Source of the DNA: Gnetum montanum | Taxonomy: Eukaryota; Plantae; Gnetophyta | Assembly (NCBI GenBank): GCA_015680685.1 | Contig: MNCI01002192.1 | Span: forward strand, 189,237 to 253,236 | Direction of reading: 5' to 3' | Length of the DNA: 64,000 nucleotides | In this document: piece after piece, positions 8,346 through 37,027 of the stretch | Layout: every line of letters begins with the position of its first letter | Numbering within the stretch: the first letter of the stretch is position 1 | The notes under the pieces: model-generated | Databases searched by the model: none | Told to the model about the DNA's origin: nothing | What the model saw: the letters and a program-made list of their open reading frames with translations, nothing else | Translations under genes and position numbers: made by a program

Positions 8346-9126
8346 ATAACTTCTTCTACTCATCACGAAGCCTTAGTAAAGGTGTTGATTTCAATTCCTA
8401 GTATTAAAAACATCCATGCCAATGAAAAGTCCATCCATGATACTAGTTTCACCTGGGGAGGAAATGAAGTCAAATGTACTATTGTTTTGTGATAGTGAAG
8501 TTAAAAGTAATCCCCAAGATAGTGAGATAATAAGGGTCCCTCTCTTCATAACTACAAGGGTTGGGCAATACTAGGTAGACAGGGTGCACATTGATGATGG
8601 ACTAGCCACTAATGTTATACCTTTTACCATTATTGAAGGGTTAGGCCTAGCGAAGCACATTCAAAATAATTCTACCTTTGTTTTTAAATTCTTTAATAGA
8701 TCATGGATGGTAGTAAAGGGTTTGATTTCACTAGACTTTGTAGTAGGGGAATAATTCCCTACATCAGCCAACTTCTAAGTGGTGGAAGAAATACTAGGAT
8801 TTAACCTCATCGTGGGGAGGTCTTGGCTAACTGATTTATGAGTAGTTTCCTTTCCCATTCACCAAGAAATTCACTTATATTATGAGGGAGGTGAAATATT
8901 TATTTAGGATGATAATGTAGTTCCCTTGGTAGTCAATAACATGAACATGGAGAAAGTGTTTGAAGTGGAGTTTCAAGAAGAAACACCTACTATCAAGAGT
9001 AAAGTCAAGAGGCTTGAAGGAGTAGATCAAGCCAAAACCAAAGATAACCAAGCTATTGATGCACAATGGAAAGGGCTCCCATTCAACATGGTCAATGAGA
9101 AAAATGGAAAATACAAGATTATATAA
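8346..9126 (+). pseudogene. gag C-terminus / aspartic protease remnant (Ogre/Tat type)
   Basis: Manual translation gives SSTHHEALVKVL...PLFITTRV..VDRVHIDDGLATNVIP...FNLIVGRSWL..VVSFPIHQEI, matching the Ogre/Tat RVLIDNGS..N / YNLLLGRPWIH..AVPS.LHQ pattern. Confidence 0.8.
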
Positions 9127-10274
9127 TAAAGATCGTATGCTTTCCTAATATTTTAAAGATTAGGAAATAGTTGCATGATTGAGTATGTCCCCTAATCACT
9201 TGACCCTATGTTAATGAATGTGTGATCTTTTCTTCTTACTTTTATTTTGTAGCCTAGTTTTAAACTCTTGTTTACATGTATCATTTTTCTTTATCATGCT
9301 TTACATTGTTTTAACCTTATTTTGCATGAAATTCATAACTTATCATTATCCATGATTTATCTTTTATGCTTTCTTTTAGAAAAATGTAAACATACCATAA
9401 ACATTTTAAAACTTAAAAAATAAAAAAAATTTAAAACATAAAAAACTTATACAAATTTTACCATGGTCAACCAAGGCCTTAAACTAGTTGTCTACTAAGG
9501 TCTTAAATTGGCAATGCATTTATAACCTTTTTATTCCTCATTATTATTACAACCGTTATACAATAGTTTGCATTTTATTCTACCTTATTACTATACCATT
9601 TTACATTTTATAATTTTTTGTCTTATAGTCTTATAATTTACCAATGTAGCCTTATCACATTAATAATACATAAAATACTTAAGAAATATATAGTAGTGAA
9701 AATGCTAAAACATATAGGCAAAATTAAAAATAATTATAACCAAAGTCTCCAAGATTAACAGCCATAGTCATAGAGTGTGACATAAAAATTTGGTTAAAAA
9801 TGATAATAAAAATAAATAAATGTCTAAAAACCACCATGGTTGCACTATGTAATAATAAAAATAATAATAATGAAAAATTGCTTCATACTCTCTAATGGCT
9901 ATGAATAGCTATTAATAAAAAAAAAACATCAACATCAGGACCAAGATAGCCAAAACATAACAAGATAAGTAGGCCTAAGGAAAAATTGGAGGACAGGGAG
10001 AAGCATCATCATCATCATGGCCACTAGGGTTGGTTCCATTAGCTAGTGCCTACACCACAATAAAAATCAAAACAAAACATAAAATAAAAATTTAATTAGT
10101 AACCTATGTAGCCAAAACATGAAAACAAAATGACAAATGAAAGAGAACACAAGATACAAAATAAACTAAAATATATTAAAATTGAAATATACACAAACAA
10201 ACCTATGGAGGTTTTAATGTAAGGTCTTCTAAAAGAAAGTTTAGGAGACTAGTCTATAAATGATGAAGAATTTG

Positions 10275-12195
10275 TTCTTCATTCATGATCACATAGTCTA
10301 CTTCTCTAAGGTTCACAAAAATTGGGATATTCCTCTACTTGATATTAGTCCATGGTAAGGGCTCTTGTGAAAGGGTAGTAGTAGTTGCCTCCCCTGAAGT
10401 AGTAGTAATCTAGGAAGCTAAGGAATTAGACAACACTAGAGAGATTCTAAATAACTTAAAGGCCTTCTCTATGTTGATTTCTTGCTTGAACATCTTCAAA
10501 TTTTGGCTCTTTATAGCCTCCTCTTACAACCACTTGTAATAACTCTCCCTTTCTACCTTCTATTTGTGCTTGTGGTTTTTCCATGTCTTGCCCCACTCAA
10601 GGACCCAAGCAAAGTAGTCACATTAGTCTCTAATATTACGAACTAACAAGTCCACCTAGATATCATTTTTTGCATTTCTCCTAGGTAGAGAAACCTTGCC
10701 ATGGATGGGATTTTAGTAGTGTGGTCATTCTATATTCTTAGTGCACAAGGAGTATCTATAGGCTACATAAGCCTCTACAAACTTCTTATGGTTTCTAAGG
10801 TCTCTAATCTCCTCTCCCTACTACTTGGTTTCTTTCTCCAATGCTACAACTGTTTCTCATAGGAATTTCTTTGAATGTTTGTATTCCCACGAAATCTTGC
10901 CACATGAGAGGGCACATTCAATGGCACTCTTCTATAACCTTTGTGGAACATTTTCTACATCAAGCAGTAGTGTAAGAAACTTATCAAACTTAATGTTATG
11001 TTTAGGGTCCCATCCAACCTTAGACACTATAAACAACATAACAAAAATTTACATATAAAGACAATAAGTAAACAACAAAAATAATAAAAAATACTTTAAA
11101 CAACTAAGACCATGTAACCATAAAACGTAAAAAGACATTATATATATATATATATATATATACAAAAAAATATATAAAGAATAAAGTAATTTAGGTAAAG
11201 CATGCTATTGTTCTTAGCAACATCGAGAGCAATATGTTGCAATTGATCAATCATGTCTTCAACTGTACCATGCATAAACTCAATCTTATTAGGAACTTTA
11301 GCCCATTGTTTCATATAAAATGTGGAGTTGGATGCCTCTAGAAGGGGTTCAAACACTACAACAAGTATAACCATCACCTAAAAGTTAAAATCAAATTTAA
11401 CATGAAACTACATGATACAACACATAAACTAAAATGGATAAATACCTAGAGGACCATGCAGGATGTCAATGTGAGTTTCATCATCAAATGTTGAATCTTC
11501 AAATATGGCATCCAAGGCATTCAATGCTGCATTAGATATTAGTTCATCATCCTCTTGTTGCCTTAGTGCTTTCTCTTCTTGGTGTTTTTTCTATGCCTCG
11601 ATGGCTACTTGGGTTGCCAGCTCTTGTTGTTTTCCTATAAGAATGACAAAGACAAAACATAGAACAAGTTAGCAATTTTGCCTATAAAATTAATATGATC
11701 ACATAAATGTGCACATAACATAAATAATATGAAAGAGACCATAAAAACCAAGCACAAGAAAAAATTCAATTAGAACATACCTAAAAAATGTGATGTGCTT
11801 AGTTGATCCTAAGGGATATCTTCTTTTTCACTAGCTGCTCAATAATAGTGACCATCTCTTCAACTAGTGGTTAATTCAACTTTTCTTTGGTTGCACCATT
11901 AGCCTCAACACACAACTCCTTAGCTCTCTTAACACTTCCACAAGAAATATGGAGCTCAATCCCTATGTTGTTAGGGAAAGAACAATGTACACCACTCAAT
12001 TTCTTAGTGGTAATAGACAATGATTCTCCAATATCTTCAACTAGTGGGTTTTGAACCTACATGTCTAAAATAATATGTTTCACCCAATGTTTGGAAAATT
12101 AGAATGGATCATGGAATATCCATTTTCCATCCTTATTGACCACTGGGAATTCTAAGAACCTCCTTAAATATGCTACAAAAAATGAAAAATATAAG
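10275..12195 (+). repeat. 1.92-kb direct repeat, left copy (flank of the PLE chain)
   Basis: Collinear with 26244-28162 from TTCTTCATTCATG to AAAATAYAAG. Confidence 0.92.
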
Positions 12196-13380
12196 AGGGT
12201 TCCATTTCCTATTGCGAACATCATGGAGTTGATGAAGCCATTCAAGAAGATGCTATCTAGAGAAAGCAAGAACAAGGTTGAAGCAATGATCTAAGAAGTG
12301 AAAAGGATATCTTTGAGCACAAAGTCATCAAAAAAGCTATTGTCGAATCTGCTAAAGATCATCGAGGCAAGATTCTCTTATGAGGTATCACTTGATCTCA
12401 ACAACAATGAAGGATTTCTTTTGATGGCAAGGATGCCAAGAGGAGAAAGGGATGTATTGATAAGCATTTAAGGATTTTTGATAACACTAAGTAGAAAGAA
12501 TACAAGTGTTAACAAAGTTAGAACCCTTAAAGAAGGAAACATCCAAAATGTTTGCTAAGGAGCTAGATACTGAGGGAGTAATATTGATGGTAGGATAGAA
12601 AGAACCATACTAATTAAGTAACTAGAAGAGGGAATCCTATGAACTACTCAAAATGCCAAAGGCATCATCAATGTACCTTTTGAATTAGAGAAGATGCTTG
12701 GATCCTAGTGTAGAGAAAATTTGTTTCTCTAAGTGATAAAGAAATAGGCAAGCGTAGACAATGGCAAAGTTGCTACCCATGGTGGTGCCTTGAATCTATT
12801 TGTAGAAGACCCCGTTGAACTTCAAAAAATATTCTTGAAGGACCAAAGAGGCCAACTCCATGATAGCATTAATGTAGAAGACCTACAAATTAAAATCACT
12901 ATCCTGAAAATATGACTCAACCATAGCTTGAAGAGTAGCAAGGCCATGATCCGTGGGAATGCTAGGGTAGAGAGATTCTACATCAAAAGTGAAAAGAAAC
13001 ACATTTTGACGTAGGAATCTTGAGTGAAGGTCATGTATCAAGGTTCATGAGTCTGAAAGGTGGTATGGTTGAGAACAAAGGATGGGGAAAAGCAAGTAGT
13101 GGAGCAGGCAAAAGGTAGGTTCAAGCAAATAGTCTGAATACGAGTAGATAGGATGACTAATGAGAACAGGTTTATGGAGTTTAGGGATTAGGTAAAAAGT
13201 ACAAGGTTTGAAAGCAAAGACTTTGAAAAGGGGTCTCTTAAAATTAGAAAAAACTTGTGTAAAATGGTTGATCATAGAGAGAAGCTGATGACAAAGGAGT
13301 TCCCATGGAATGACGTCCACTTGTTGGTAGACATCAGTATTTGACAATTGTCTAATGACCTCTTGATAGTACCAAGTGGA
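12196..13380 (-). pseudogene. PLE RT fragment (5'- and 3'-truncated)
   Basis: ORF 13045-13401 KPCTFYLIPKLHKP; continues through YIDD to the thumb region. Confidence 0.88.
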
Positions 13381-13397
13381 TTGGATGACTATTGGAT

Positions 13398-13687
13398 GCA
13401 CATGACCATTATTCTATTTAACATGTATGTTTGCACATGACTATTACTCTATTTAACACACATGTTTGCACATGATCGTTACTCTATTTAATGCATATGT
13501 TTGCATATCACCATTACTCTATTTAATGCACATGTTTGTACATGACTGTTGCTTTATTTAATGCACATGTTTGCACATGACTATTACTCTACTTAATGCA
13601 CTTGTTTGCACATGACCATTACTCTATTAAATGCACATGTTTGCACATGACTGTTACTCTATTTAATTCACATGTTTACACATGACC
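13398..13687 (-). repeat. 35-bp tandem array (~8 units)
   Basis: Reverse complement of AATAGAGTAACGGTCATGTGCAAACATGTGCATTA. Confidence 0.95.
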
Positions 13688-13698
13688 ACATTGCCTAA

Positions 13699-13739
13699 AC
13701 ACACTGATGAGGGGTGTAAGTCCTAGAAATGTTTTGTGT
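13699..13739 (+). ncRNA. Degenerate minimal type I hammerhead ribozyme (variant a)
   Basis: ACACA-CTGATGA-GGGG-TGTAAG-TCCTA-GAAA-TGTTT-TGTGT. Both catalytic boxes are present and stem I pairs ACACA/TGTGT. Confidence 0.72.
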
Positions 13740-13904
13740 AACAACATACATTGTGCAATGCTATAAGCTTTTTATTACTTTCTATTTGATAGTTTTTCTA
13801 TTTTACAGTTCCTATAGTATTTCTCTCAGCCCTCCTATTTTATTACTTCCTAGATTTCATCAATAATTTTAAGTTTCCTAAAATTTTAAGTTTCTTACTT
13901 GCTT

Positions 13905-14703
13905 TTCCCATTTTTAAACTTCCAAAAGATCAAAGCATTGTTATCCATATTGCCAAAAAAATCTAGGTATTTGTGTCCTAGACTCCTCTTGGTACTATCA
14001 AGAGGCCATTAGACAATTGTTAGATATTAATGTCTACCAACAAGTGAACGTCGTTCCATGGGAATTCCTTCGTCATTGACTTCTTTCTATGATCAATCAT
14101 TTTCCACATATTTTTTCTAATTTTAATGAACCCCTTTCAAAATTCATAGCTTTCAAACCTTGTACTTTCTACTTGATCCCTAAACACCATAAACCTATTC
14201 TCGTTGGTCATCCTATCTGCTCCTATTCAGGCTATTTGCTTGAACTTGCTTCCCACCCACTCCACTACCTACTTTTCCCCATCCTTTATTCTCAACCATA
14301 CCATCTTTCAGACTTATCAGCCTTGATTCATGAGCTTCACTCCAGAGTCCTACCTCAAAATGTATTTCTTTTCATTTTTGATATAGAATCTCTCTACCTA
14401 GCATTCCCACGGATCATGGCCTTGCTATTCTTCAAGCTATGGTTGAGTCATATTTTTAGGATAACCCTTTTGATTTGTAGGTCTTCTACATCAATGCCAT
14501 CATGGAGTTAGCCTCTTTGGTCATTCAAGAACATTTTTTGAAGTTCAACGAGCTCTTCTACAAACAGATTCTAGGCGCCACCATGGGTAGGAACTTTGTC
14601 GTTGTCTATGCTTGCCTATTTTTATGTTACCTAGAGAAACAAATTTTCTCTACACCAAGCTCTGAGCATCTTCTCTACTTCAAAAGGTAAATTGATGATG
14701 CCC
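13905..14703 (+). pseudogene. PLE RT internal fragment ending just after the IDD motif
   Basis: ORFs 14089-14511 and 14502-14690. Confidence 0.88.
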
Positions 14704-16829
14704 TCTTGGTAGACATTAGTATTTGACAATTATTTGATGACCTCTTGATAGTACCAAGAGGAGTCTAAGACATAGATACCCAAATTTTTGTCAATAGTAT
14801 GAATAAACATGCTTCGATCTTTCTGAAGTTTAAAAAGGGTTCCAAGAAGATGTCAAGGAAGTAGAGGCCTCCAAGAAAAATCTAAAGAAGAAAGAGAAGC
14901 CTCAAGAGATGAGAGACAATCGAGAATAGATGTCTGTAGGTGTTGGTTGAAGTTGCTGGTGGGTAGATTCCACTTGCTTTGAAAACATAACTTCATCTTA
15001 GCAAGATGAATTTCTTCCAAAAAATGTGAAGAAGAAAGGTTTACCTCTTTTAGTTTCTCTTTGAAGAAGTTGCATAACCAAAGAAGTCTAGCAAAGGTAG
15101 CGAACTCCTTGAGAACTACACCACCATCTATGGGAAGAGGACAAGGAATGAATTTAAGGCCAAAACCTAGAACTTTGATTTCATTAGGAGAAAGATTCCT
15201 AAATGAAAAATTGTGAATGGCGAAGTTAGAAATGTGATTTTCTACTTCATGAATGAACTTATGTTCATGAAAGATTCCTAAATGAAGTAGAAAATCACCA
15301 CTTCCTAGAATTCTTACGTCCATCTTCTCTTCCAACATAAGGAGAGAAGATGGACGTAAGAATTCTAGGAAATGGTTGGGAGCCAAAATTTTAACCACAT
15401 GCGGGAGAGCAGTTTTTGAACTTTCTTCAGGTAGATATCTGGCACGATGTTCTTGGCCGTGGTGTAGATGGTGTAGATTTGTGTTGCTAATGATAGAAAC
15501 CTTGGTGTGATTCCAATCCAGATGGGCTAGAGGCACTGGAGGTGGAGTTCTTGTTCAGCTGTTAGTGGGGCCTAACCTAGGAAGGAGTTTTGCGAGCTAG
15601 GCACCAGCCATTTAAAGAAGAATTGACCTGAGGTCATTTTGGCTATGAGTGTCCCTAATGCTTGTGATTTTTCTTCTTTTTCTTATTCTGATTCTATGGA
15701 GGGTGATAGTGGGGTTGAGTGGGCTTGTTGGGGAGGATGCCAAAATCCTTCAACCATTCACCAATTTTTTTGAAACTGGAGTCCCATTCTTGTTGAATGG
15801 TTTCTTTGTAGACCTCCTTGATAGTAGGACCAGGGTCAAGGCGATGTACTTCAGTCTCCACAACTGAAGTAGCATACTTTTAGGTCTCTTTTGCTTTCTT
15901 CCAAGCTTTTTCATGGACCAAGAATGGAAGTCATTTATTTAGAAAAGCTTACTCAAGTTTTCTGGAGTATATTTGCAAAATATCATTGATGTATGAATTG
16001 GGTCGATTGATAGCTAAGATGCATTCAACCAACTTTGAATAAGCTTCATGTGAGAAAGAATCCAATTTTTTAATATTGTCTTTGGTGGATGCCATTTTTG
16101 CGTGAAGATAGCGTCTTGGTGTTTTAGATTGTGTTCTTTTTCGAGAGCAACAAAATCTACATAAAAGATGGTATCTCCTTTAGGCGTGGAAGCTTTAAGG
16201 CTTGGAACAGTAATGCGTAGACTTTGAACCAACAAATGTTTTGCGTGTAGTTTCTCAAGACACTCTATATTGTGGCAGGAGTGCTTTGCATTATGTAAGT
16301 TCTTATAGAGTCACTTAGCAATAGAGTTTATCATCTCCAACAACACTTCAGGAATTTGTAGTGAATCTCCATTGGCAGTAGATGAAGAAGATGTTTTGAC
16401 ATCATTCAACTGTTACCAAAGAGAATTACATTCAAACTAAAGTGAGTTGATGCAGGCCTAAGAATTTGCACGTTGTTGATGACAAAGACTTAATTTAGCA
16501 TTAGCTGTAAGATGTGCGTGTTCTACACAAAGCTCATGAATGTGATTAATGAAGTTTTCATAGATCACTTCTGTCTATTCTGAAGGCTTGGAATGGAAAT
16601 CTAGTTTAAGATATTCCAAGGAAGCATATGGAAGTCCATGAACTAGATAGTTGAAACAACACAAACCTAATTGTAGATTCATGTCATGCTCCGTATAAGA
16701 ATCTAGTAGACAAGATATTTTTCATGAAGAGCTAGCAGAGGGAACATTCTTTGAGCATTGCATGGAATTAGTAGTGTGGGGTTGGTTCCTTGAAGAAGAG
16801 GTAGAAGGTTGCCAATCTGCAGAGCTCAT
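14704..16829 (-). pseudogene. PLE ORF1 plus N-terminus of the RT ORF
   Basis: Starts MSSADWQPSTSSSRNQP at 16829 and is an inverted homolog of 23082-25170. Includes NFSFRNLSPNEIKVLGFGLKFIP, a PLE RT N-terminal motif. Confidence 0.82.
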
Positions 16830-16974
16830 TTTCTTTAGGCAGCAAAATAGATGAGAAATTTAGGGTACTTAAAATTTTAAGTAAGATCTCATGCGATTGA
16901 AGAAAAGACAAAAAGATAGAAGGACCAAAAGGAACAAATTAAGAGAAAGGCTCAAACATAGAAGCAAAGCTACT

Positions 16975-17016
16975 ACATAAAATATTTTAAAGAAATATCA
17001 CCCCTCTTCAGTATGT
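16975..17016 (-). ncRNA. Degenerate hammerhead ribozyme (variant b)
   Basis: ACATA-CTGAAGA-GGGG-TGATAT-TTCTT-TAAAA-TATTT-TATGT. The GAAA box has decayed. Confidence 0.5.
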
Positions 17017-17090
17017 TTATAGAAGCAATCCTTGAAATGTGGTTTAAGCAACAAGTATAGGATGAGAATTTATAGAGTCCCAACTTCAAA

Positions 17091-17357
17091 AATAGAGTAA
17101 CGGTCATGTGCAAACATGTGCATTAAATAGAGTAACAATCAAGTGCAAACTTGCGCATTAAATAAAATAACATTCATGTGTAAACATGTGCATTAAATAG
17201 AGTAACGGTCATGTGCCAACATGTGCATTAAATAGAGTAACGATCATGTCCAAACATGTTCATTAAATAGAGTAATGGTCATGTGCAAACATGTGCATTA
17301 AATAGAGTAATGGTCATGTGCAAACATACGTGTTAAATAGAATAATGGTCATGTGCA
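17091..17357 (+). repeat. 35-bp tandem array (~7.6 units)
   Basis: Unit starts at 17091, 17126, 17161, 17196, 17231, 17266, 17301 and 17336. Confidence 0.95.
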
Positions 17358-17373
17358 TCCAATAGTCATCCAA

Positions 17374-18557
17374 TCCTCTTGGTACTATCAAGAGGCCATC
17401 AAACAATTTTTAGATACTAATATTTACCAACAAGTGGACATCGTTCCATGGGAACTCCTTCATTGTCGGCTTCTCTCTATGATCAACCATTTTCCACAAG
17501 TTTTTGTTAATTTTAAGAGACCCCTTTTGACAGTCTTGGCTTTCAAACCTTGTACTTTCTACATGATTCCTAAACTCCATAACCTATTCTCATTAGTTGT
17601 CCTATCTACTCCTATTCAACCTATTTGCTTGAACCTACCTCTTGCCTGCTCCACTGCCTACTTTTCTCTATTCTTTGTTCTTAACCATATCATTTTTTAG
17701 ACTCATTAGCCTTGATCCATGACCTTTAGTCTAGAGTCTGACCTCAAAATGTGTTTCTTTTCACTTTTGATGTAGAATCTCTCTCCCCTACCATTCCCAC
17801 AAATCATGGCCTTGCTACTCTTCGAGCTATGGTTGAGTCATATTTTTAGGATAACCATTTTGATTTGTAGGTCTGCTACATTAATGCCATCATGGAGCTA
17901 GCCTCTTTGATCTTTCAAGAATATTTTTTAGAGTTCAATGGGGTCTTCTACAAATAGATTCAAGGCACCACCATGGGTAGCAACTTTTTTGTTGCCTATG
18001 CTTACCTATTTCTTTATCACTTAGAGAAACAAATTTTCTCTATACTAGGCTACAAACATCTTCTCTACTTCAAAAGGTACATTGATGATGCTTTTGGCAT
18101 TTTGAGTAGTTCACAGGATTCCCTCTTCTAGTTACTTGATCGGTATGGTTCTTTCTATCCTACCATCAATATTACTCCCTCAGTATCTAGCTCCTTAGCA
18201 AACATTCTGGATGTTTCCTTCTTCAAGGGTTCTAACTTTCTTAACACTAGTATTCTTTCTACTTAGTGTTATAAAAAATCCTTAAATTCTTATCAATACA
18301 TTCCTTTCTCCTCTTGGCATCCTCGTCATTAGAAGAAAGCCTTCATTGTTGCTGAGCTCAAATGATACCTCATTAAATAATCTTGCCTCGGTGATCTTCA
18401 ACAGATTCGACAATAAATTTTTTGATGACTTTGTGCTAAAGGATATCCTTCTCACTTTTTGGCTCATTACTTCAACCTTGTTCTTGCTTTGTCTAGATAG
18501 CATCGTCTTGAATGGTTTCATCAATGCTATGATGTTCGCAATAGGAAATGGAACCCT
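17374..18557 (+). pseudogene. PLE RT fragment, inverted copy of 12196-13380
   Basis: Same 5' and 3' junctions as 12196-13380. Confidence 0.88.
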
Positions 18558-19306
18558 CTTATATTTTGCATTTTTTGTAGCATATATAAGGAGGTTCTTA
18601 GAATTCCTTGTGGTCAAGAAGGATGGAAAATGGATATTCCATGATCCATCCTAATTTTCCAAACCTTGGGTGAAACATATTTTTCTAGACATGTAGGTTC
18701 AAAACCCACCAATCGAAGATATTGGGGAATCATTGTCTATTACCACTAAGAAATTGAGTGGTGTACATTGTTCTTTCCCTAACAACATGGGGATTGAGCT
18801 CCATATTTCTTATGGAAGTGTTAAGAGGGCTAAGGAGTTGTGTGTTGAGGCTAATGGTTCAACCATAGCAATTTGAAGCAACCACTAGTTGAAGAGATGG
18901 TTACTATTGTTGAGCAGCTAGTGAAAAAGAAGATATCCCTTAAGATCAACTAAGCAGATCACATTTTTTACGTATGTTCTAATTGAATTTTTTCTTATGC
19001 TTGGTTTTTATGATATCTTGCATATTATTTATGTTATGTGCACATTTATGTCATCATATTAATTCTAGAGGCAAAATTTCTAACTTGTTCTATATTTTGT
19101 CTTTGTTATTCTTATAGGAAAACAACAAGAACTAGTAACCCAAGTAGATGTAGAGCCATAGAGAAAACACCAAGAAGAGAAGGCACTAAGGCAACAAGAG
19201 GATGATGAACTAATAGCTAATGAAACATTGAATTCCTTGGATGCCATATTTGAAGATTCAATGTTTGATGATGAAACTCACATTGACATCCTACATGGTC
19301 CTCCAG
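18558..19306 (-). repeat. Inverted partial copy of the target flank (11446-12195) embedded in the PLE chain
   Basis: Reverse complement of the flank, including one intron, attached to the same PLE junction. Confidence 0.9.
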
Positions 19307-20042
19307 GAATCACACCAAGGTTGTTGTTGTTAGCAATGAAACTCTACACCATCTACGCCATAGCCAAGAACATCGCTATAGACTTCTTCCTAAAGAAAGT
19401 TCAAAAATAACTCTCCCACACATGGTTGAACTTCTAGCTCGTAACCATTTCTTAGAATTCTTATGCTCATCTTCTCTTCCAGTGTAAGTTCATTCACAAA
19501 GTAGAAAATTACATTTCTAACTTCGCCAATCACAATTTTTCATTTAGGAGTCTTTCTTCTAATGAAATTAAAGTTTTTGTTTTTGGCCTTAAATTCATTC
19601 CTTGTCCTCTTCCCATGGACCATGGTGCGGTTCTCAAGGAGTTCACAACCTTTGCTAGATTTCTTTGGTTACACAACTTCTTTAAAGACAAACTAAAAGA
19701 GGCAAACCTTTCTTATTCACCTTTTTTGGAAGCAATTCATCTTACTAAGATGAAGTTATGTTTTCGAAGCAAGTGGAATGTGCCTACCAATAGCTTCAAC
19801 CAACACCTAGAGACATCTTTTCTTTATTGTCTCTCATCTCTTGAGGCTACTCTTTCTTATTTAGATTTTTCTTGGAGACCTCTGCTTCCTCTACATCTTC
19901 TTGGAGCCCTTTTTAAACTCTAAAAAGATCGAAGCATTGTTATTTATCCTGTTCACAAAAATTTTTGTATCTGTGTCTTGGACTCCTCTTGGTACTATTA
20001 AGAGGTCATCAAAAAATTGTCAAATATTGATGTCTACCAAGA
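19307..20042 (+). pseudogene. PLE RT N-terminal fragment
   Basis: Inverted copy of ~14704-15512; includes ORF 19615-19923. Confidence 0.85.
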
Positions 20043-20840: not shown

Positions 20841-20990
20841 AAGCTAGGAAACTTAAAATTTTTTAAGAAATCTTATGTGTTAAGGAAAAGAACAAGAGGG
20901 CTGAGAGAAATACTATAGGAACTATAAAACAGACAAACTGTTAAATAAAAAGTAATAAAAAGCTCATAGTAGTGTACAAAGTATGTTGTT

Positions 20991-24362: not shown

Positions 24363-24396
24363 TGCCCAGCCTACAAAACTCCTTCCCAGGCTGGGT
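24350..24396 (+). promoter_or_regulatory. Putative -1 programmed ribosomal frameshift signal
   Basis: T TTA AAC in the ORF1 frame, a 7-nt spacer, then stem GCCCAGCCT/AGGCTGGGT. The -1 frame equals the frame of RT ORF 24548-24889. Confidence 0.75.
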
Positions 24397-26140
24397 CCCA
24401 CAAATAGCTGAATAAGAAGAACTCCACCTCCAATGCCTTTGGGCCATCTAGCTCAGAATCACACCAAGGTTTCCATCATTAGCAATGCAACCCTACACCA
24501 TAGACTTCTTCTCGAAGAAATTTCAAAAGCCACCCTCCTACACATAGTTGAACTTTTGGATCCCAGCCATTACCTATAATTCTTATGCTTGTATTCTCTT
24601 TGAGCGTAAGTTAGTTTGTGAAGTAGAAAATCACATTTCTAACTTCACCATTCAAAATTTTTCATCTAGGAGTCTTTTTCTTGATGAAATCAAAGTTCTT
24701 GATTTTGGCCTCAAATTCATTTCTCATCCTCTTCCCATGGATCATGGTGTGGTTCTTAGGGATTTCACTACCTTTGCTAGAATTCTTCGATTACACAACT
24801 TATTTAAAGACAAACTAGAAGAGGTAAACCTTTCTTCTTCACCTTTTTTGAAAGTAATTCATCTTGCTAAGATAGAGCTACATTTTTGAAGCAAGTGGAA
24901 TTTCCCTGCCAGTAGCTTCAACCAACACCTGGAGACATCTATTCTTGATTATCTCTCGTCTTTGGAGGATACTCTTTCTTCTTCAGATTTTACTTGCAGG
25001 CCTATGCTTCCTCGATGTCTTCTTGGAGCCCTTTTTAAACTCTAGAAATATTGAAGCATTGTTATTCATCTTGCTGATAAAAATATGGGTTTCTGTGTCT
25101 TGGACTCTTCTTGGTACTATCCATAGGCCATTAGATAATTGTCAAATACTGATGTGTACCAACAAGTGAGCATCGTTACATGGGAATTCCTTCATCATCA
25201 GCTTCTCTCTATGATCAACTATTTTTCATAGGTTTTCTCTAATTTTAAGGGATCCATTTTGAAAGTACCTTGTGCTTTCTACCTGATCCCTAAACTTCAT
25301 AAACCTATTCTCGTTGGTCATCATATTTGCTCCTATTTAGGCTATTTACATGAACCACCCTCCCACCTACTCCACTACCTACTTTATCCCATACTTTGTT
25401 CTCAACCATATCATCTTTCAGACTTGTTAGCCTTGATCTATGACCTCCACTCCAAAGTCCTACCTCAAAATGTGTTTTTTTTTTTACTTTTGATGTAGAA
25501 TCTCTCTACCATAGCATTCCCATGGATTATGGCCTTGCTACTTTTTGAGCTATGGTTAAGTCATATTTTTAGGGTAACCCTTTTAATTTGCAGATCTTCT
25601 ACATCAATTCCATCATGGAGCTAGCCTCTCTAGTCCTTCAAGAACATTTCTTGGAGTTCAATGGGGTCTTCTGCAAATAGATTTGAGGCATCACCATAGG
25701 TAGCAACTTTGTCATTGTCTACGCTTGCCTATTTCTATGTCACTTAGAGAAACAAATTTTCTCTACCCTAAGCCCTAAGCATCTTCTCTACTTCAAAAGG
25801 TATATTGATGATTCCTTTGGTATTTGGAGGGATTCACAAGATTCCCTCTTCTAGTTACTTTATCGGTATGGTTCTTTCTATCCTACCATCAATATTATTC
25901 CCTCAATATCATAGCTCTTCAACAAACATTTTTGATGTTTCCTTCAGTATCTAACTTTGTTAACACTAGTATTCTTTCTACTAAGTGTTATAAAAAATCC
26001 TTGAATACTTATGAATACATCCCTTTCTCCTCTTGGCATCCTCACCATCAAAAGAAAGCCTTCATTGTTTCTAAGCTCAAATCATACATCATCATAGAAT
26101 CCTACCTTAGTGATCTTCAGTAGATTCAACAATAGTTATT
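24350..26140 (+). pseudogene. PLE RT ORF2, 3'-truncated and disrupted
   Basis: ORFs 24548-24889, 25259-25498 and 25824-26123 carry PLE RT motifs. Confidence 0.88.
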
Positions 26141-26144
26141 TTGA

Positions 26145-26248
26145 GTACCCAAAAACTTAAAATTTTAAGTACCAAAAATTTTAAATTTTCTAAAAATTTG
26201 AAGTACCCAAAAATTAAAATTTTAAGTACCAAAAATTTTAAGTTTCTT
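26145..26248 (+). repeat. Reiterated AAAATTTTAAGT(ACC/TTC) junction filler
   Basis: About five imperfect copies of a motif also present in the PLE UTRs (13865-13895, 16866-16882, 23029-23046). Confidence 0.75.
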
Positions 26249-28162
26249 CATTCATGTTCACCTAGTCTACTTCCTTAAGGTTGAAAACAATTGGGATATT
26301 CCTCTACTTGATATTAGTCCATGCTAAAGGCTCTTGTGAAAGGGTAGTAGTAGTTGCCTCTGTTGAAGTAGTAGTAATCTAAGGAGCTAAGAAATCAAAC
26401 ACCACTACAGAGATTTTAAATAGCTTAAAGGCCTTCTTTGTGTTGATTTCTTGCATGAACATCTTCAACTTTTGGCTCTTTATATCATCCTCTTGTAACC
26501 ACTTATAATAACTCTCATTTTATACCTTCTATTTGTGCTTGTGTTTTTTTTCATGTATTGCCCCCCTTAAGGACCCAAGCATAGTAGTCTTCTTAGTCTT
26601 TGATCTTACGAACTAACAAGTCCATCTAGATATCATTTTTTGCATTTCTCCTAGGTAGATCAACCTTGCTATGGATGGGATTCTTGTAGTGTGGTCATTC
26701 TATCTTCTTAGTTCACAAGGAGTCTCTATTGTCTACACAAGCCTCTACAAACTTCTTATGGTTTCTAAGGTCTCTAATCTCCTCTGCCTACTACTTGGTT
26801 TCTTTCTCCAATGCTACAACTCTCTCTCATAGGAATTTCTTTGAATGTTGGTATTCCCATGAAGTCTTGCCACATGAGAGGGCACATTCAATGGAACACT
26901 TGTATAACCTTTGTGGAACATTTTCTACTTCAAGCGGTAGTGCAAGCAAGTTATCAAGATCAATGTTATGTTCAGGGTCCCATCCAACCTTAGACATTGT
27001 AAGCAACATAACAAAATTTACATATAAAGACAATAAGTAAACAACAGAAATAATAAAAAATACTTTAAGCAACTAAGATCATGTAACCATAAAACATTAA
27101 AAGCCATAAAATATATATATAACAAAATATATAAAAATATATAAAGAATAAAGTAATTTAGGCAAAGCATTCTATTGTTCTTACCAACATCAAGAGTAAT
27201 ATGTTGCAACTGATCAATCATATCTTCAACCATACCATGCATAAAGTCAATCTTATTAGGAACCTCATCCCATGGTTTCATACAAAATATGGAGTTGGAT
27301 GCCTCTAGAAAGGGTTCAAACACTACAACAAGTATAACCATAAACTAAAAATTAAAATCAAATTTAACATGAAACTACATGATACAACACATAAACTAAA
27401 ATGCATAAATACCTGGAGGACCATGCAGGATGTCAATGTGAGTTTCATCATCAAATTTTGAATCTTCAAATATGGTATCCAAGGCATTCAATGCTTCAGT
27501 AGGTATTAGTTCATCATCCTCTTGTTGCCTTAGTGCATTCTCTTCTTGGTGTTTTCTCTATGCCTCTACAGCTACTTGGGTTGCCAGTTCTTGTTGTTTT
27601 CCTATAAGAATGACAAAGAAAAAATATAGAAAAAATTAGCAATTTTGCCTATATAATTAACATGATGACATAAATGTGCACATAACATAAAGAATATGCA
27701 AGATACCATAAAAACCAAGCATAAGAAAATATTGAATTAGAACATACCTAAAAAATTTGACGTGCTTAGTTGATCCTAAGGGATATCTTCTTTTTCACTA
27801 GCTACTCAACAACAATAACCATCTCTTCAATTAGTGGTTGCTTCCACTTTGCTTTGGTTGAACCATTAGCCTCAACACACAACTCCTTAGCTCTCTTAAC
27901 ACTTCCACAAGAAATATGGAGCTCAATTCCCATGTTGTTAGGAAAAGAACAATGTACACCACTCAATTTCTTAGTGGTAATAGATAATGATTCCTCAATA
28001 TCTTCGACTGGTGGGTTTTGAACCTACATGTCTAGAATAATATGTTTCACCCAAGGTTTGGAAAATTAGGATGGATCATGGAATATCCATTTTCCATCCT
28101 TCTTGACCACTGGGAATTCTAAGAACCTCCTTAGATATGCTACTAGAAATGCAAAATACAAG
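26244..28162 (+). repeat. 1.92-kb direct repeat, right copy
   Basis: Collinear with 10275-12195; continues into the uninterrupted exon at 28163. Confidence 0.92.
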
Positions 28163-31100
28163 TGGCATATTGTCTCAAGGTTGTTTCAGAATTTTGGATC
28201 TCATCCTATAGCCCAGAGACCTATTGAGTAGCCTAGTTAACCTTAGCACCTTCGATGAGGACCTTCTTCATGGTCCAAGCTTGTTGAATGCTAAGGATCT
28301 TCTTTTGCAATATCAACATGGGTAACGACCTAGAGCAAAACAATGGATACATCTCATTAACTTTTATTATGTAGCACTAGTCTAGAGGCAACCCATTGCT
28401 ACCACGATGAATGCTAAGCCATTCTTTGATCTCCTCTCTATGATCTATCCCTTTCCCTACCTTTATGGAAACCTTCATGTCATCAAAAGGTATGCCAAAT
28501 AAGACATTAAACATGGATTAATTGATTACCAAGATGACATGCACACTATTAACATGAGAGATGAATTTCTTAACTCCTTTTTCAAAAGAGTTAATGACAT
28601 TTACCATCTCTACAATAGGCATGGATGGGCTAGGAATCATAATTAGATTGAGCAAACCTGCATTGACAATCTTTTCCTAGATCTCTCTAGGTGCTCTACC
28701 AGTTGATCACTCTTGTGCTAAATCTACTTTGCCCCACTTAAGAATTAGTGTCTCCTTTTCACCTCCCAAGGTGATTATGGAAATAGTAGATTTAGGCATA
28801 AGATCTAAAATAGAACATGAACAACCAATTATCCTTTAGAATAAGCACACCACACAAGTAAAGTATATATATAACAAACATAGTAAAAAATCAAAATTAA
28901 ATTTTTAACCACATAGTTAAAACCCATTAAAAAATTAAGGCCTAAACAACTAAAAAACAAATAGAGAACATTAACATTAATAATCAAAAAATTAAAAAAA
29001 ATAAAAACTATTAAATTTTCTTATCTAGTTTCAGTAATGTAGGGGGTCCTAAAAGCCACAAGTGCATGTATGCCTAAGTCAGAAAGGCCCCACTAAATAG
29101 GAACAATCCTATTCACCAAACACTTGTGGTAGACTTTATAGTAACATGAAGTGTATATTCTGAAGTCATCCCTTAGTTGCTACAACACCATGAGTCTCAC
29201 ATGGGACCCTTGTGTAAAAACCTCCAATGATGTGTGTGCCAAGGGTAGAACTTGGTCACTCTTGATTAATTCTTCATTGTGCACTTTATACCTACACCAT
29301 AAAAATTCAACAAAAAAGTCTTAGGATAAAATAGTCTAATGAAAATAACAAGTGAAAAAAAAACATAGAATGGCACTTATGCTTGTAACTAGTATATAGT
29401 GCCAGAAGGATTTTGAAATAAAGTGTGGACTTGATGGCCTATCATTAATTTGTTGTTCACATTATACAAAATAAACTCAGGCATATCCCAAATTTGGGAT
29501 AACTTGTGTGTTCCTAGTGTGCACATATCATCGTGATGGTCACATTCCATACAAGTGGTAGGGCAATCTACCATGAACTTGACAATGAGACTAGTAGGAT
29601 GGGGTAGCAAAGTCTTTTCAATAACAACTACAGTGTCAAAGGCCAAGTGTAATCGTAAGATTATACTAAAGTTCTTCAATAGGAATGCTAAGAACTCTTT
29701 AGCCCTAGGCCTAAACCAAGGAGAACTATGATCCAAGACCATGTTAGGTAGCAAACTATTTGGTCCTAGGATATTTATGTAGCATAGAATCCCAACCATT
29801 TCAATTACCATTAGGATGGATTTCAAAAAGGCTCTACATAACCAAACAAAACCATTAAAACATAAAAGATTAGTAAACAAAAATTAACAAAAAATAAACA
29901 AAAAATGATGAATATAATTTCAATTTTCAAATATTAAATTCAAAATAAATTAAAGGCAAAATAATAAAATACAAAACTTCAAACTATCAATATTTTCACT
30001 TAAAAACTATGTAGAATATCAACACAAAACATTTATGAAAATCACATAGTTAAATAATGCATTAGAAATTTTTACATTAAGCATTAAAATATGAGAAAAA
30101 TACTATAATAAGTTTAAAACCATGATTAAAAATGTGTTAATGGTTGTGAAAATTTCAACTTAAGTTTGAAAAAATGTTGACTAGAAATCCTAGTTTATAG
30201 TGAAAAAACTATAGGAAAGTTGGATAAAAATTTCAAGAAGATTAGATAGATATTGAGAACCAAAATAAGCCATGTAAATGACCATTAGAGATCTTAAAAT
30301 ATCCAATAAAACATAATAAGTATAACAACACTACTAGTGCAAGCTGGGAAGCTTGCATGCTCAGCAAGTAAAACTACAACTGTATAGGGTAGTTCATGTG
30401 AACAATAATTTGAAAACAAAATTACCAAAAATTATTTTTCTAAGTTTAGGAAATGTAAACATACATAATTTAAGAAAACTTCTATACCAAAATTCCAATA
30501 ATGGGCATAGAAAAATTCACATTGTCGCTTGGAATCACTTTGAATTTTTTTCAAAAAATCTGGTTTGTAGTGAAACCTCTAGGAAAATTATGAGAAACTT
30601 TTCAAAAATTCTAAAACCTATTTAGAACCCTACTACACTATCCCATAAACCCTCAAAAGACTAGGATGTTCATAGAAAAATAGCCAAAGTATGCCAATGC
30701 TACTAGTCTTCGAAGGCCAAAAATAGCATTGTGCTTTGGTCTATGGAAAAAATCATAAGAAATTAACTGTAGCTCCAAAAATAGTGATTCAACCATTGAT
30801 GAGACCATTAAACACCATAGAATAACCTTATGGCATGAAAAACTAGAACTTTTATATCTAACCCTAATAAAATATTGTAAAGTTTAAACATTCTTTGGTA
30901 ACAAATTGTCAAAAACACATAGGATGGGCCAAAAAAATTCATAATTTTATAAAAAGAGTCCCTAAGGTTAAAATCACAACATGAGTTCATCAAAATAACC
31001 TAGATGCTACATTTAACACATATAAAACCAAATTTTCCCAAACACAAACCTAGGCATTACAAAATGCCTTCATACTACAGTAAAAATTGGTTGAAAATAG

Positions 31101-31859
31101 TTAATGAAGGGTACTTGGCAATCATGTTGGAAGAGCTTTTCTAATGGATGGTAATGGGAGGTGGGTGATTCCTCTACTAGTAGCCTTTTCCTCCTCTGGT
31201 GCTAAGTTCCTTTTGATTCCTCCTCTCCTCTTTAACATCTTGCAAGGATGAGATGAAATCTTTAGTTTCTTTATAACTACGCTACCTTGGTGATGGGAAA
31301 TAGAAAAAAATACATTGACTATGGATAGAAATATGGTAAAAAATGGCTGAAAATATTGTTTAACAACCTCTACTCCAAGAAAAAATCTAGAAAAAATAGT
31401 TTTCATAAAAATTCCAATGATGAAGCCCTCCATATACGTATGCATTAGTACGATAACCTTCACATCCAAAATGCCTACACAACATCGAGTGAACTCAATG
31501 GTCACATATGAAAAGTGATAAATATGCTAGGTTTACTTGGTTTTGAGTTTCAAATAATCTTTTAACCTTGGGTAGGCCCCATAGGGTTCCTCCTAAATAA
31601 ACCACAAAAAATCCCAATACAATGGGATTTATAATTTTAAACAAAAAATACACTAGGGATTAATGCCCAAGTAAACATTGAAAACTTGGAATGGATTCCA
31701 AGATCTATCCATGGTGAAGGTACATCTTCTAGCTATCCATGATTGATCCATTGTGGTTAATAAATTCCCATCTCAAACTAGAAATCCTAGACATTACCAT
31801 AAGAGGACTCTAGTTTCTAATAATGGTCAAAAAAACCCCTAAAACAAAGAATTCCAAGC

Positions 31860-33242
31860 ATAAATACATTGCCTACAAGAAAAGATACATTGGCTAGTGT
31901 ATTTTTACAAAGAATGGTGATGACTTGCACTAACCAAACCTCCAAGTAACCTCCAAATTACTGAGCCAAATCCCAAACCCTAACTAGAGCCTCCAACAAC
32001 TCCAAAACCCTAGAGACCCTATTAAAAGTTGTTAAAATCCACATATCCTTCAAAAGTACATTGGTATGAGCATTAAATACATTGACTAGTGTATTTTTGG
32101 AAGATGAGACATAAAATCCATCCATAATACCTTCAATAGTCTTCAATATTGCTAACCCTAGCCTTGACACCTACCTAGAGCCTCTAGTAAACTCAAAACT
32201 CTAAATGACAAGCCAAAAATAGGATAAAATTGGTCAAACCATGAAAGATATAATGGGATGAGATTAAATACAGTGGCTAGCAAATAAATTATAGGAACAA
32301 CTAAGAAAAATCCATGAACCAATTGAAATAGCCTTCAAATACCTCACACCAGTCACAGAATCCATCTAGAGCATCCAATAGTCATCAAACTTTGAAAACT
32401 AAGTCAAGAAGTGGTTAACAGTAGTAACATCCTCCAGAGATACATAGGCATCAACACTAAATATGTTGGCTAGTGTATTTTGTAGAGAAGTGACCAAACA
32501 GAGTCTCCAACAACCTCCTAGATCATTGATTTTAAGCCTAAACCCTAGTCGCAGATACTAGTGATCCCATAAGTTACAAAACCAAGTTTATTAATTATCC
32601 AAACTACCTAGAAGACATAATTTAATGGAAATATATTGACATCAACACTAAATACATTGGCCAATATATTTTTTGTTTTAATGGTAGTTTTGATAGCCTT
32701 ATGAAATTCTAGATTACCTAAAATTTAACTAGAGAAGCCTAGAACCACAAAACCTAAAACTAGTTGCAACTTGACCTTATTTTTAGCATGAAAAGTTTAA
32801 ATTTCATTATTTATATGTTGGGGTAATGGAAAACTATGCTGACTTGCATATTTTTGAATTGGAGTGCTCGAAACTACACTTTCATTGATCTATTACGACT
32901 TCTAAATGATCATTCTACAACCTTGAGACCCCTTCACTATCCAAGAAGATTGCTAAAGCTAAAATTTCAAGTCTAAAGAATCATGGAATAATTTTTTCTA
33001 AGAAAATACATTGGCATCAATATTAAATACACTAGCCAATGTATTTTCTAGCTCTTGGCAGCATGTAAGGCCTTTAGGAGGTCAAATCAACACCAAAATT
33101 AACTAATCCTTCCTCATAGTCCATTGCACTAACATTTTAGGATATTAGAACCTAGAAACTATTCTAGAAGAATCATAGAAATTAAATGTCACTAAAATAT
33201 ATGATGGGGCCTGCAATAAATACGTTGGCTAGTGTATTTATT
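31860..33242. repeat. ~192-bp-period array of palindromes AAATACRYTGGCYARYGTATTT (8 units)
   Basis: Palindrome centres at 31892, 32084, 32275, 32468, 32659, 32841, 33034 and 33227. Confidence 0.8.
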
Positions 33243-33884
33243 ATAAGTGATAGCACATTTATTCAAAATGCTTTATTTTTATCTTCAAATTGGCTCAAAA
33301 TGATCTCCCTGAGTGCCCAAGCATTTTTATTAATCTTGGTGCCTCCCACCATGGTCCGCTAAGGCATAAAATTGGAAAAATGTGACCTTGATTGACCAAT
33401 ATTCACAATGTTTTACCACATGTTACCTACCTTTATTGGTTTGGCCTTATTCCACTATGTTTTAGCTTGATCTAACCTTGTTTCACATTATTGTCTATCA
33501 TTTCCATATCATTTGGTGTCATCTGATCTCATTTTCATCATTTCTATAACATTTGGCTCTATCCCACCATAATTTTCTATCATTTGACATTATTTTAACT
33601 TAGTTGACTTGATTTGACATCAACTAATGTCATACTTTAATTAGACCTTATTCAAACTTTCTTGACATCATTTTATGGGGTTTGACCATCATTTGGCCTT
33701 TGTTTCAAATTATTTGATTTAACCTACCCCTTATAGCCTTTGTTGACCATGTTTGAACCTTTTTTAACCCTTTATATATTGTGTTTTGACAAATATAGGC
33801 ATTATTACACAATTTTTTACATTGACACCATTTAATAATTTTATCACATAGGTGTTACTCAATGTGCTTATGGAAGATTAGATT

Positions 33885-36800
33885 ATGGATACTTGGATGT
33901 AGTTTAGTTTACCTCTAATCTTGAGTAAACCTCATATTGATGTTGATTGATTCATTGACCTTAATTACTTAGATCTTGAACTTGAAAGCCTAGGCGATTA
34001 TATAGCCTCTATAGAAAAGCCTCTTGAATGGCCTAAACATTTACTTAAAACCCTTAACCTTAAGGCTCGCAATATTACTGAAGACTCTCTAGCTAATATT
34101 TTAGTTATAATGCATACTTGGTATGAGAAATACCATTGAAACTAAGTTTCTTAGTTGAACCCTAGTAGGCCCAATAGGTCACCAAGGTCCTTTAAGACAA
34201 CATTAAGATCTTTGCCTAGTCATATGAAGATATGCCAGGTGTTGATCCATGCCTAGTGCAACACAATATTATACTTGATCCTAGTATTAAGCCAATTAAA
34301 TAACAGGTTTACAAAATTAGAGAAGATCTAGCCCTGGTAGTTTGTGATGAGATCATAAAACTCTATTAAGTAGGTTTCATTCTAGCTATTGATTACATGG
34401 ATTGGGTGTTCAACATAGTGGTAGTCCCTAAGACAAATGGGAGTATATGTACTCGCATCAACTTTCAAGAACTAAATAAGGTAGCTATTAAATACAATTT
34501 TCCTTTTACTAGTATTGACCAACTCATCAATACTATGGCTATATATGCCTTGTTATCCTTCATGGATGGGTTCTTGAGATATAACTAAGTTAGGATTAAC
34601 CTAGACCATCAACTTTATATGACTTTCATGACCCCTTAGAAAAAATTTTGTTATACCATGATGCCCTTTGATCTAAAAAATGCAAGCATGACCTATCAAT
34701 GAGCGATGACATACATATTTAGTGACTAAATGCTAAGGTTACTTAATGTTTACATAGATGACATAGTGGTTAAATCTAAGTGGCTAATAATCATGCACAT
34801 GATGTATACTTGGTGCTTAAATGATTCCTGAAATATGAACTTAGGCTTAATCCTAAGAAGTGTGTTTTTGGCATTAAAACTAGTAAGATGCATGGTGTTG
34901 TAGTGTTCAAAGTAGGAACACATGTCGATCTTGATAAGATTAATGTCATTACTCACTTGATAGTACATACTAATCTTAAGGAGCTTTGGGAACTACAAGG
35001 TAGATTGAAATTTATTCATACGTTCATCTCAAGGCTTATGGATAAGCTACAACAAATGAAACACTTGCTTAAGAAAGGAGTTCACTATAAGTGAATTTCC
35101 CAATGCCAATAAGTCATCAATAAAATTAAGCAAGAGTTGGCGATAATAGTTGAGTTTGACCTACACTACATCTCCCAAGCGTTAACCAAAGGTCAAGCTA
35201 TAGCTTCATAAATCACAACTTTCTCTGTTGAAGACAACGCAACCATAGGCTTTGAATTCCTTGATGAGCATATCAACATTATTATTGAGGTACTTGAGGA
35301 TTACAAGGCCATCAAGCACTTTTACGGGGCCTCAAATACTCATGGGGCTAATGTTGCTACCATCTTAACATCATATTTTGATGTAATCCAACCCTTCACT
35401 TACCATTTTCAATTTTCAAGTATCAACAATGTGGCAAAGTATGAAGAATTAATCAAAGGAATAATGGTAGCCTATGACCAACGAATCAAATGCCTATGAT
35501 AAGAGTTGATTTACAACTTTTGGTTAACCAAGTAACTAAGGTTTATGCATGTAAAGCCAACCATTTATAATGCTACTATGACCTAGCTAATAAACTAATG
35601 CAACAATTTATAGATGTTAGTATCCAACATATACCATGAATCGAGAACACCTTAGTTGATGCCATTGTAACTTTGGCCCTAAGTGTGATGCTAGATGTGT
35701 TTAGCAAGTTACCTTTGTTAACCATGAACTGTACTACTTCCATCACATAGAACACTAAAGACATCTCTATAGCCATTGTTAATACTATTCCTCAAAAAGA
35801 ATGCTATGATGATATTACGTTTTATCTAATTCATGGTGAATAACTACTTCTCAAAAGGACATTGTGCATAAAATATTAAAGTAATATATCATTGTAGGAA
35901 ATAATACACTATGTCAAAGGTCTTATGATGATATATTATTAGTATGCTTGGGCAAAACTAAAGCCCACACACTTCTTGAATAACTTCATGAAGGAGTATG
36001 TGGAGTACATATAAGACCTAGAATCATGGCTATAAAAATTAGAAGATTAGGATGCTATTGACCCTATATGGAAAGTGACTACCTATAGAAAGTTAAGACT
36101 TATGATACCTATCAACAACATAGCAATCTAATACATGTGCCACAAACTAAGTTACATACTACTCAGGTAACTTGGTCATTTCAATGATGGGGACCTAACA
36201 TTATTGGACCTATAATGCCTAAGTATTCTGTAAAGCATAGTTTTATGATCACTAATACTGAATATTTTACAAAGTGGGTTCAAGCTATTCATCTAAGGAA
36301 AACAACTCCTAAACAAGTCTATAGATTCATACTAGATAGCATAGTAGCTTGTTTTGACATACCTCTAACCATAATCATAGATAATGGACCACAATTTAGT
36401 AGCCAAGAAATGCAAACCTTTTGTAAAGAACTAAGCATTAAGAATTTTTTTTGTCATCATATTATCCTCAAGCCAATGGAAAAGATGAAGCTGGTAACTA
36501 GGTAATCATAAACTTACTTAAAGATGCTAAATAATAATAGATGTAAGTGGCATGAGTGGCTTATCCATGCACTTTAGTCCTATAGGACTACCTTTCAAAC
36601 TACACCTGGTGTCACCCTATATAGCCTTATTTACAAATCCCAAGTTGTTTTACCTCTTGAATTGTAGGTTCCATTGCTAAGAGTGGCTTTATTTGACTTC
36701 ATCAACAATCAGTAGAACAAGGATTTGTGTGCAATCAACCTAGATTCGATGGAAGAGTAGTGAATAAAAATACTTTTTAAAATCGAATGATACTAATAGA

Positions 36801-37027
36801 GGCAAAAGCAACAAAATTTTCATAATCTAAATAAGCAAAAGATCAATAAAGGATACCTAGTCCTCAATACTATTCACAAGCATGTAAACAAGTTCTTAAC
36901 CAATTAGAAGGGGCCTTTCTTGGTTACAAAAGCCTATGGTAATAGAGGATTCAAATTGGCAGATAGGGATGGGAATGAATTGGCCAATTTGGTTAACCAT
37001 TCCTATCTTAATTATTATTACATCTAA
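33885..37027 (+). pseudogene. pol: pol (RT, RH largely deleted, aRH, INT) of element B
   Basis: LLSFMDGF, YIDDIVV, EYFTKWVQAI and DNGPQF motifs; collinear with the pol regions of A and D. Confidence 0.9.

Follow-up and report, generated by a model that had tools for sequence, protein, structure and literature searches.

A 64,000-nucleotide (nt) stretch of the Gnetum montanum genome (contig MNCI01002192.1 of assembly GCA_015680685.1, positions 189,237 to 253,236; hereafter the window, with coordinates counted from its first letter) consists of plant retrotransposons inserted into one another and contains assembly gaps; within it, three decayed copies of a high-copy Tat retrotransposon family, designated A, B and D, carry a reverse transcriptase (RT) gene without an adjacent protease. 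In copy B, the end of a gag-protease open reading frame (ORF) and the pol gene are separated, once a later insertion is subtracted, by 8.79 kb of spacer harboring the remnant of a multi-exon gene in antisense orientation. This architecture is real and unusual and is best read as a variant of the Ogre/Tat split between gag-protease and pol, on the basis of one copy running from protease to pol and a partial second copy. The initial annotation had proposed such a split with a nested antisense gene, and the protease profile, the match between the B and D spacers and the series of exon-like blocks all bear it out.

The pol genes are located at 1283..4707 (forward strand, A), 33885..37027 (forward strand, B) and 53620..57072 (reverse strand, D). 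In A, the leader is followed by the Pfam domains RVT_1, RT_RNaseH, RVT_3, Integrase_H2C2 and rve, that is, RT, RNase H (RH), additional RNase H (aRH) and integrase (INT); B (leader, RT, aRH, INT) and D align to A. The presence in A of an aRH additional to the native RH is the mark of the Tat clade, and its position between RH and INT that of Ogre. Among the best 120 matches, the nearest homologues of the three RTs are plant Ty3 RT-RH(-aRH) polyproteins with 34-46% identity. Decay has turned 1.5-5.5% of the codons of the three copies into stops (16 in 1066 codons in A, with a single frameshift near 1510), and the copies are about 65-73% similar to each other in pol. A quick RT tree of 38 rows thinned from 104, none of them a named reference element, groups A, B and D in one clade with support of 100, whose position it does not fix. 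Judged by domain order and alignment, A, B and D are decayed copies of one Tat (RT-RH-aRH-INT) family, and no relatives of this family were found among viral contigs. Compared with D, the B pol lacks about 350 nt of the native RH region near 35113-35143 (about 35130).

The stretch at 8346..9126 (forward strand), initially annotated as protease throughout, is the truncated end of a gag-protease ORF, in which an Ogre/Tat-type retropepsin core (8536-8916) is preceded by a short upstream piece cut by the long terminal repeat (LTR) of A and followed by about 70 codons to the TAA. A gag-end motif at 8346-8420 is plausible by eye and remained below threshold in the search. Pfam gave no match on 8446-9123 and a word-based search missed the protease homologues; a full HMMER search recovered them (320 of the 1.84 billion proteins scored E 0.001 or better), and 21 of these homologues were scanned, with aspartyl-protease families in 6 and gag or RT domains in 11. 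Two plant retrotransposon-like protease/pol proteins (P0001 and P0245) are deposited as Serratia marcescens, probably through contamination. A protease profile made from 116 slices of outside homologues matched the window only at 8536-8916 (83.6 bits) and in the protease of element C, a further Tat element, which was also the only match of the gag profile. Neither profile detected anything in the 7.3 kb upstream of the RT of D or the 1.6 kb upstream of that of A, and no gag was found in the 25 kb upstream of the RT of B, whose nearest protease is 8536-8916. The claim that no protease or gag lies close upstream of RT thus stands for all three copies. As in Ogre, the gag-protease ORF is apart from the RT ORF: it ends at 9126, and no protease occurs in the pol frames. 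The entire 1.28-kb upstream region of A is likewise family sequence, since contigs of many divergent copies span it.

The protease of B is located 25,316 nt before the start of its RT profile match. Two direct copies of a target segment flanking the insert, 10275..12198 (1.9 kb) and 26244-28165, share 91% identity, which gives a subtraction of 15,969 nt for the insert and leaves about 9,350 nt to the RT profile start and 8.79 kb from the protease ORF stop to the pol ATG, in agreement with the gap of about 8.8 kb estimated initially. The corresponding gap is at least 5 kb in D and at least 1.28 kb in A. In Ogre, as the initial annotation had stated, it is a short spliced intron, averaging 274 bp according to the accessible text of PMC6317226; splicing of the short Ogre intron is also described in the portion of PMC4408406 consulted. 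Eighty related metagenome loci, only 44-54% identical, provided the reference for protease-RT distances. In 51 of them a protease precedes the start of the RT profile match by 721-1,621 nt (median 1,019); 26 have less than 1.5 kb upstream of RT, and three have 8 kb or more without a full protease match. L069, L077 and L050 were rejected as long-spacer cases: L069 has a partial protease, and the other two lose similarity to their relatives at or just upstream of RT. The ends of the L050 contig (1-2927 and 12041-14966) form a perfect 2.9-kb inverted repeat, probably an assembly artefact.

Both ends of the B spacer are T-rich on the sense strand. The protease-proximal part (9127..12198) contains a T-rich stretch, copies of a 25-nt motif at 9465 and 9489, and the last antisense exons down to about 9985; the pol-proximal part (30750..33884), T-rich over its last 600 nt and with the motif at 33353, is collinear with the region upstream of D. 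Seven consecutive 500-nt tiles of B (30750-34250) matched D in collinear order above all 8 composition-matched controls, the last one weakly, and tiles left of 30750 gave at most weak, non-collinear matches. The D spacer (57073..62300) is collinear with B to about 61115, includes antisense exon 1 (ATG at 60629, forward strand) and is cut near 62300 by other repeats; 62300-64000 holds 35-nt and 67-nt tandem arrays and an oppositely oriented LTR end of the A family (63452-63618). Because B and D share this collinear spacer of about 4 kb, antisense exon 1 included, it was inherited within the family. No tblastx match to the spacer was obtained in the 80 outside loci.

The antisense gene remnant of B (26244..31238, reverse strand, ATG at 31238) comprises exon-like blocks with approximate limits at 31238-31085, 29832-29395, 29292-29035, 28832-28395, 28328-27748, 27600-27412, 27340-27185 and 26996-26250. 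It is uninterrupted through 28165 on the target side, and its last block reaches down to about 9985, leaving 860 nt to the stop of the protease ORF. Overall, there are about ten exon-like blocks (T 20-38%, GC 36-49%), usually with one frame poorer in stops. Between them lie intron-like blocks rich in T (45-60% T in eight of nine), with several canonical GT and AG ends; all block limits were set by eye. Exon 1 is identical in B and D at 12 of 30 residues without gaps, a score reached by none of 10,000 shuffles, and its identity by codon position (18, 15 and 12 of 30) follows a coding-like pattern; BLASTP returned no alignment between the two exon-1 peptides. The deduced protein has no credible Pfam match, no homologue and no PDB sequence match, and its single-sequence structural model (pLDDT 48) matched no fold. 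Assignment to PMD/DUF7745 was dropped at an hhalign probability of 0.13%. By analogy with the extra ORFs of other Tat elements, it would most likely be an accessory nuclear factor.

Near-palindromic repeats of about 20-25 nt, noted by eye, are dispersed in the pol-proximal spacers of B (31850-33250, forward strand) and D (57800-60000, reverse strand) and are candidate regulatory sites. In A, the region 480-790 (reverse strand) shows a TATA-like box near 785 and a short antisense ORF from about 640, head to head with pol, and the 3' region carries a short antisense ORF remnant (5200-5850, reverse strand); neither has a Pfam match.

We give about even chances to an Ogre-like organization of this Tat family in which gag-protease and pol lie at the two ends of an intron of about 9 kb, enlarged by the antisense accessory gene. 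An unspliced LTR-driven RNA would then encode Gag-protease and also serve as the genome of about 20 kb, and in a minority of spliced RNA the whole spacer would be removed, joining the protease tail to the pol leader of about 105 codons and yielding Gag-protease-Pol. A separate promoter within the pol-proximal spacer would drive the accessory gene, whose introns, running antisense to the genomic RNA, would for that reason not be lost in retrotransposition; by established logic, introns so oriented survive this process. Consistent with such splicing, B and D both carry V-x-L-x-V-L-M upstream of the ATG, directly after the AG region, and the protease tail (105 amino acids) together with the acceptor-to-RT part (181-203 amino acids) would span 286-308 amino acids, against a median of 277 (114-494) in 12 fused homologues. 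The initial annotation had left the choice between a giant intron and Gag-independent Pol expression reminiscent of foamy viruses; the former fits better, and the latter, less likely, is weakened by an ordinary leader and by the location of the protease on the gag side.

Under this second possibility, which we regard as unlikely, the split is real and translation of Pol, without Gag, would begin at a conserved ATG. The RNA for it would either start within the spacer, where pol and the antisense gene may have a bidirectional promoter in common, or arise by splicing from the LTR leader. As initially reported, pol has its own ATG and a conserved leader of about 100 amino acids: the ATG codons of all three copies (1283, 33885 and 57072) fall in the same alignment column, the leaders are 59% (B/D, over 82 amino acids), 39% (A/D, over 70) and 31% (A/B, over 67) identical, and identity by codon position (57, 66 and 50 of 82 for positions 1, 2 and 3) is a coding pattern. 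The retained ATG, an in-frame stop 2-4 codons upstream of it in each copy, the varying phase of the acceptor and a head-to-head antisense start at a distance of 0.6-3.6 kb from that ATG would all suit independent Pol expression, for which foamy Pol, made from a spliced mRNA without gag, offers a precedent (PMC3705302, in its accessible part). However, the 102-116 open codons before RT in A, B and D match the usual state of 39 split Ogre-type relatives (median 105 open codons, Met there in 35 of 39 and at most 10 codons from the upstream stop in 7 of 39), so the foamy-like option loses its main argument; own ATG and leader are, on alignment evidence, real but ordinary for split Ogre-type elements. 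Moreover, the three stops sit at different positions in copies where 1.5-5.5% of codons are decay stops, the similarity between B and D extends upstream of the ATG, and no RNA start was seen at the leader of A among the features listed for RNA runs X11 and X14.

The 3' LTR of A (6532..8345, forward strand, TG...CA, preceded by a purine tract) abuts the protease fragment, and a second LTR end of the A family aligns to its last base, at 63618; since the fragment starts right after this LTR, A integrated within the terminal part of a gag-protease ORF from another element, whose gag lies left of the window. The 3' LTR of B starts at 38128 (forward strand), after a 3' region of 1.1 kb, and its first part (38128..38420) is 68% similar to the start of the LTR of D. 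No copy of it was found between the protease and the B pol, and the stretch from the protease stop to the last antisense exon showed neither an LTR nor any other junction. The 25-nt motif occurs in four copies upstream of the A pol (959..1139, forward strand) and in 11 more in the 3' region of A (4790-5149). A matrix of 11 copies, taken from A and D only, scored 25.4 and 23.3 at 9465 and 9489, after the protease, and 16.7 at 33353, before the B pol, always on the sense strand, with a maximum of 10.4 in element C or the Penelope-like insert; controls gave 0.25 chance matches of 12 or more per run, and none of the 80 outside loci contains the pattern. Furthermore, a contig of another copy (39 differences in 263 nt) passes out of the protease ORF into the non-coding sequence that follows it here. 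On these sequence grounds the protease is a member of the family. With no LTR before the B pol, a family-specific motif after the protease, and the 3' LTR of A severing it from gag, it is probably the protease of B itself. The circumstance that the initial annotation had named as fatal, a protease from a different element, is thereby made improbable, on the evidence of the single copy B.

It is similarly doubtful that the protease comes from a different family member joined to B by deletion or recombination, with A, B and D being gag-less pol carriers or otherwise laid out. Such an origin would be in keeping with the single copy, the heavily nested surroundings and the existence of gag-less Retand clusters (9 of 63, in the accessible text of PMC11963269); the motif, being present also in the 3' region of A and before pol, marks the family and not the copy. 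Nevertheless, a gag-less element should still have a 5' LTR upstream of the antisense gene, no LTR or junction follows the protease stop as far as the last antisense exon, and the contig of the other copy links the protease ORF to the same non-coding DNA. A passenger origin of the antisense gene (a DNA transposon, a host gene or cargo of a Penelope element inserted into a short intron of the usual kind in a B/D ancestor, then copied without function), suggested by the gene's lack of a detected homologue or domain, by the attachment of part of it to Penelope-like 3' ends and by the reported ability of Penelope-like elements (PLEs) to carry intron-containing genes (PMC8557442, accessible part), is very improbable given an exon 1 conserved in a coding-like pattern between copies about 65-73% alike in pol, a gene unbroken through 28165 on the target side, and the absence of an inverted match joining the spacer ends at E 0.01 or better, a search that short terminal repeats would escape.

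Among known systems, the family resembles Ogre in its RT-RH-aRH-INT order, a gag-protease ORF apart from pol, an Ogre-type protease, about 105 open codons before RT, a large LTR and an extra ORF. It differs from Ogre in the gap of 8.8 kb against an average of 274 bp, and in the extra gene, which here is antisense, multi-exon and located between protease and RT, whereas that of Ogre is upstream of gag, sense and often PMD; no PMD or DUF7745 match was found here, and the RT falls outside the angiosperm clusters sampled, in a quick tree that does not fix its position. With the antisense extra ORFs of Retand/TatIII elements (Grande, RIRE2; PMD or Transposase_28) it shares an antisense accessory gene in a long internal region, tandem repeats and, in A, a short antisense ORF remnant in the 3' region. 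The published antisense ORFs, however, lie between pol and the 3' LTR, where B and D have only 1.1 kb and A 1.8 kb against 2.9-6.6 kb in Retand; neither Transposase_28, expected of the antisense TRP28 ORF, nor PMD was matched here, and the accessible descriptions of these ORFs do not mention introns. The resemblance to foamy viruses lies in a Pol that may, judging from the sequence, begin here at an ATG of its own behind a splice acceptor. Foamy Pol includes the protease, whereas in the present family the protease stays with gag. The gymnosperm Tat J/K clusters (Biryukov and Ustyantsev, 2023), compared by description, are alike in having structure #1 beside structure #2 elements such as C, and most of their representatives are annotated without GAG or protease; the published text does not discuss protease-RT distance or a nested gene.

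According to PMC10508981, both Tat structures (#1, that of A, B and D, and #2, that of C) occur together in Ginkgo, gnetophytes and cupressophytes. GAG and protease are both lacking in six of seven gymnosperm RT-RH-aRH-INT representatives and protease in none of 17 from cluster E (Table S3), and LTR pairs were detected for 1.6% of the structure #1 elements of Gnetum montanum (Table S2); the figure for structure #2 in this species is 11.6%, and that for structure #1 in six other gymnosperms is 47-70%. The survey flanks are 7.5 kb in the accessible part of PMC8775202. These tables fit the present finding without commenting on it, and such numbers could also arise from divergent proteases that escaped detection, from the age of the elements or from gaps in the assemblies. 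Extra ORFs are placed upstream of gag or after pol in the accessible portions of PMC7264820, PMC11963269 and PMC6317226, and those of PMC13468544 discuss only the position of aRH. The accessible plant-retrotransposon literature (including PMC12786077, PMC6431247 and PMC8275611, each as far as available) yielded no account of an extra gene located between protease and RT; publications under subscription, in particular the Genetica survey of extra ORFs from 2011, lie outside this scope. If true, an intron-bearing, family-wide gene at this place would be a third position for extra ORFs and would stretch the Ogre intron, of a few hundred bases, about thirtyfold, offering a natural test of how Tat elements with a Gag-linked protease express Pol. 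Such an arrangement could also account for surveyed gymnosperm RT-RH-aRH-INT elements that lack gag, protease or paired LTRs, in which case autonomous families present in abundance may have been counted wrongly as fragments. A bolder and rather improbable extension would be a dominant gymnosperm Tat lineage with foamy-like Gag-independent Pol, in which a bidirectional internal promoter within the 9-kb spacer drives pol in one direction and a ten-exon lineage-specific accessory gene in the other, the elements of about 20 kb having been missed in annotation through too-short search flanks.

Several observations weigh against the giant-intron organization. Pfam also missed the protease here, so the Table S3 pattern could reflect undetected divergent proteases, and six Table S3 representatives without GAG or protease have LTR calls inside the flank (PMC10508981). 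Protease and pol occur together in B alone, amid nested repeats, with the gag and 5' LTR of B outside the window; exons 2-10 are visible in this one element because D is cut before exon 2, the upstream region of A cannot be aligned to the B and D spacers apart from the 25-nt motif, and one of 40 motif controls reached 25.3. AG sites precede all three ATGs, as had been claimed, but those noted at about 1271 and 33851 lie in different columns and phases, with no one column or phase shared by the three copies; the best-looking donors (9135 and 9183) fall after the stop of the protease ORF, and each ATG is preceded by the in-frame stop already mentioned. Since decay has made stops of 1.5-5.5% of codons, these details of splice sites and stops cannot settle the mechanism. 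The RNA junction check proposed initially gave no joint, start or loose end at the acceptor of A (1268-1272) or near 9135 in X11 and X14, among the 15 of 1,049 joints listed. These runs placed 1,104 and 583 reads on 1-9395, of which 1 and 7, respectively, matched at 99% or more; relatives of the A-region sequence are thus transcribed at a low level, with almost no reads from this copy. Reads covered neither the acceptor of B nor the antisense introns, and no RNA data set was listed for the spacer of B, which counts neither for nor against splicing there.

The sequence between the two target segments (12199..26243, about 14 kb) is a nested tandem and inverted array of RT units with 35-nt repeats, which we take to be Penelope-like from familiar RT motifs and the tandem/inverted layout; a database search gave no confirming match. 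The array is a later insertion, outside the architecture of the family. Its units include a long upstream ORF (23082-24600) and an RT that apparently ends without a C-terminal GIY-YIG domain and has no Pfam RT match. At the 3' end of one unit (18555-19310), the sequence continues as 750 nt of target DNA in inverted orientation, and the two share a short stretch where they join. In the accessible part of PMC8557442, plant PLEs are given only for algae, Selaginella and conifers. Finally, element C (41055-52348, reverse strand), with the order gag-protease-aRH-RT-RH, few stops and LTRs of 1.83 kb that are 95% alike, is a younger Tat element with aRH between protease and RT, located inside the 3' LTR of D.

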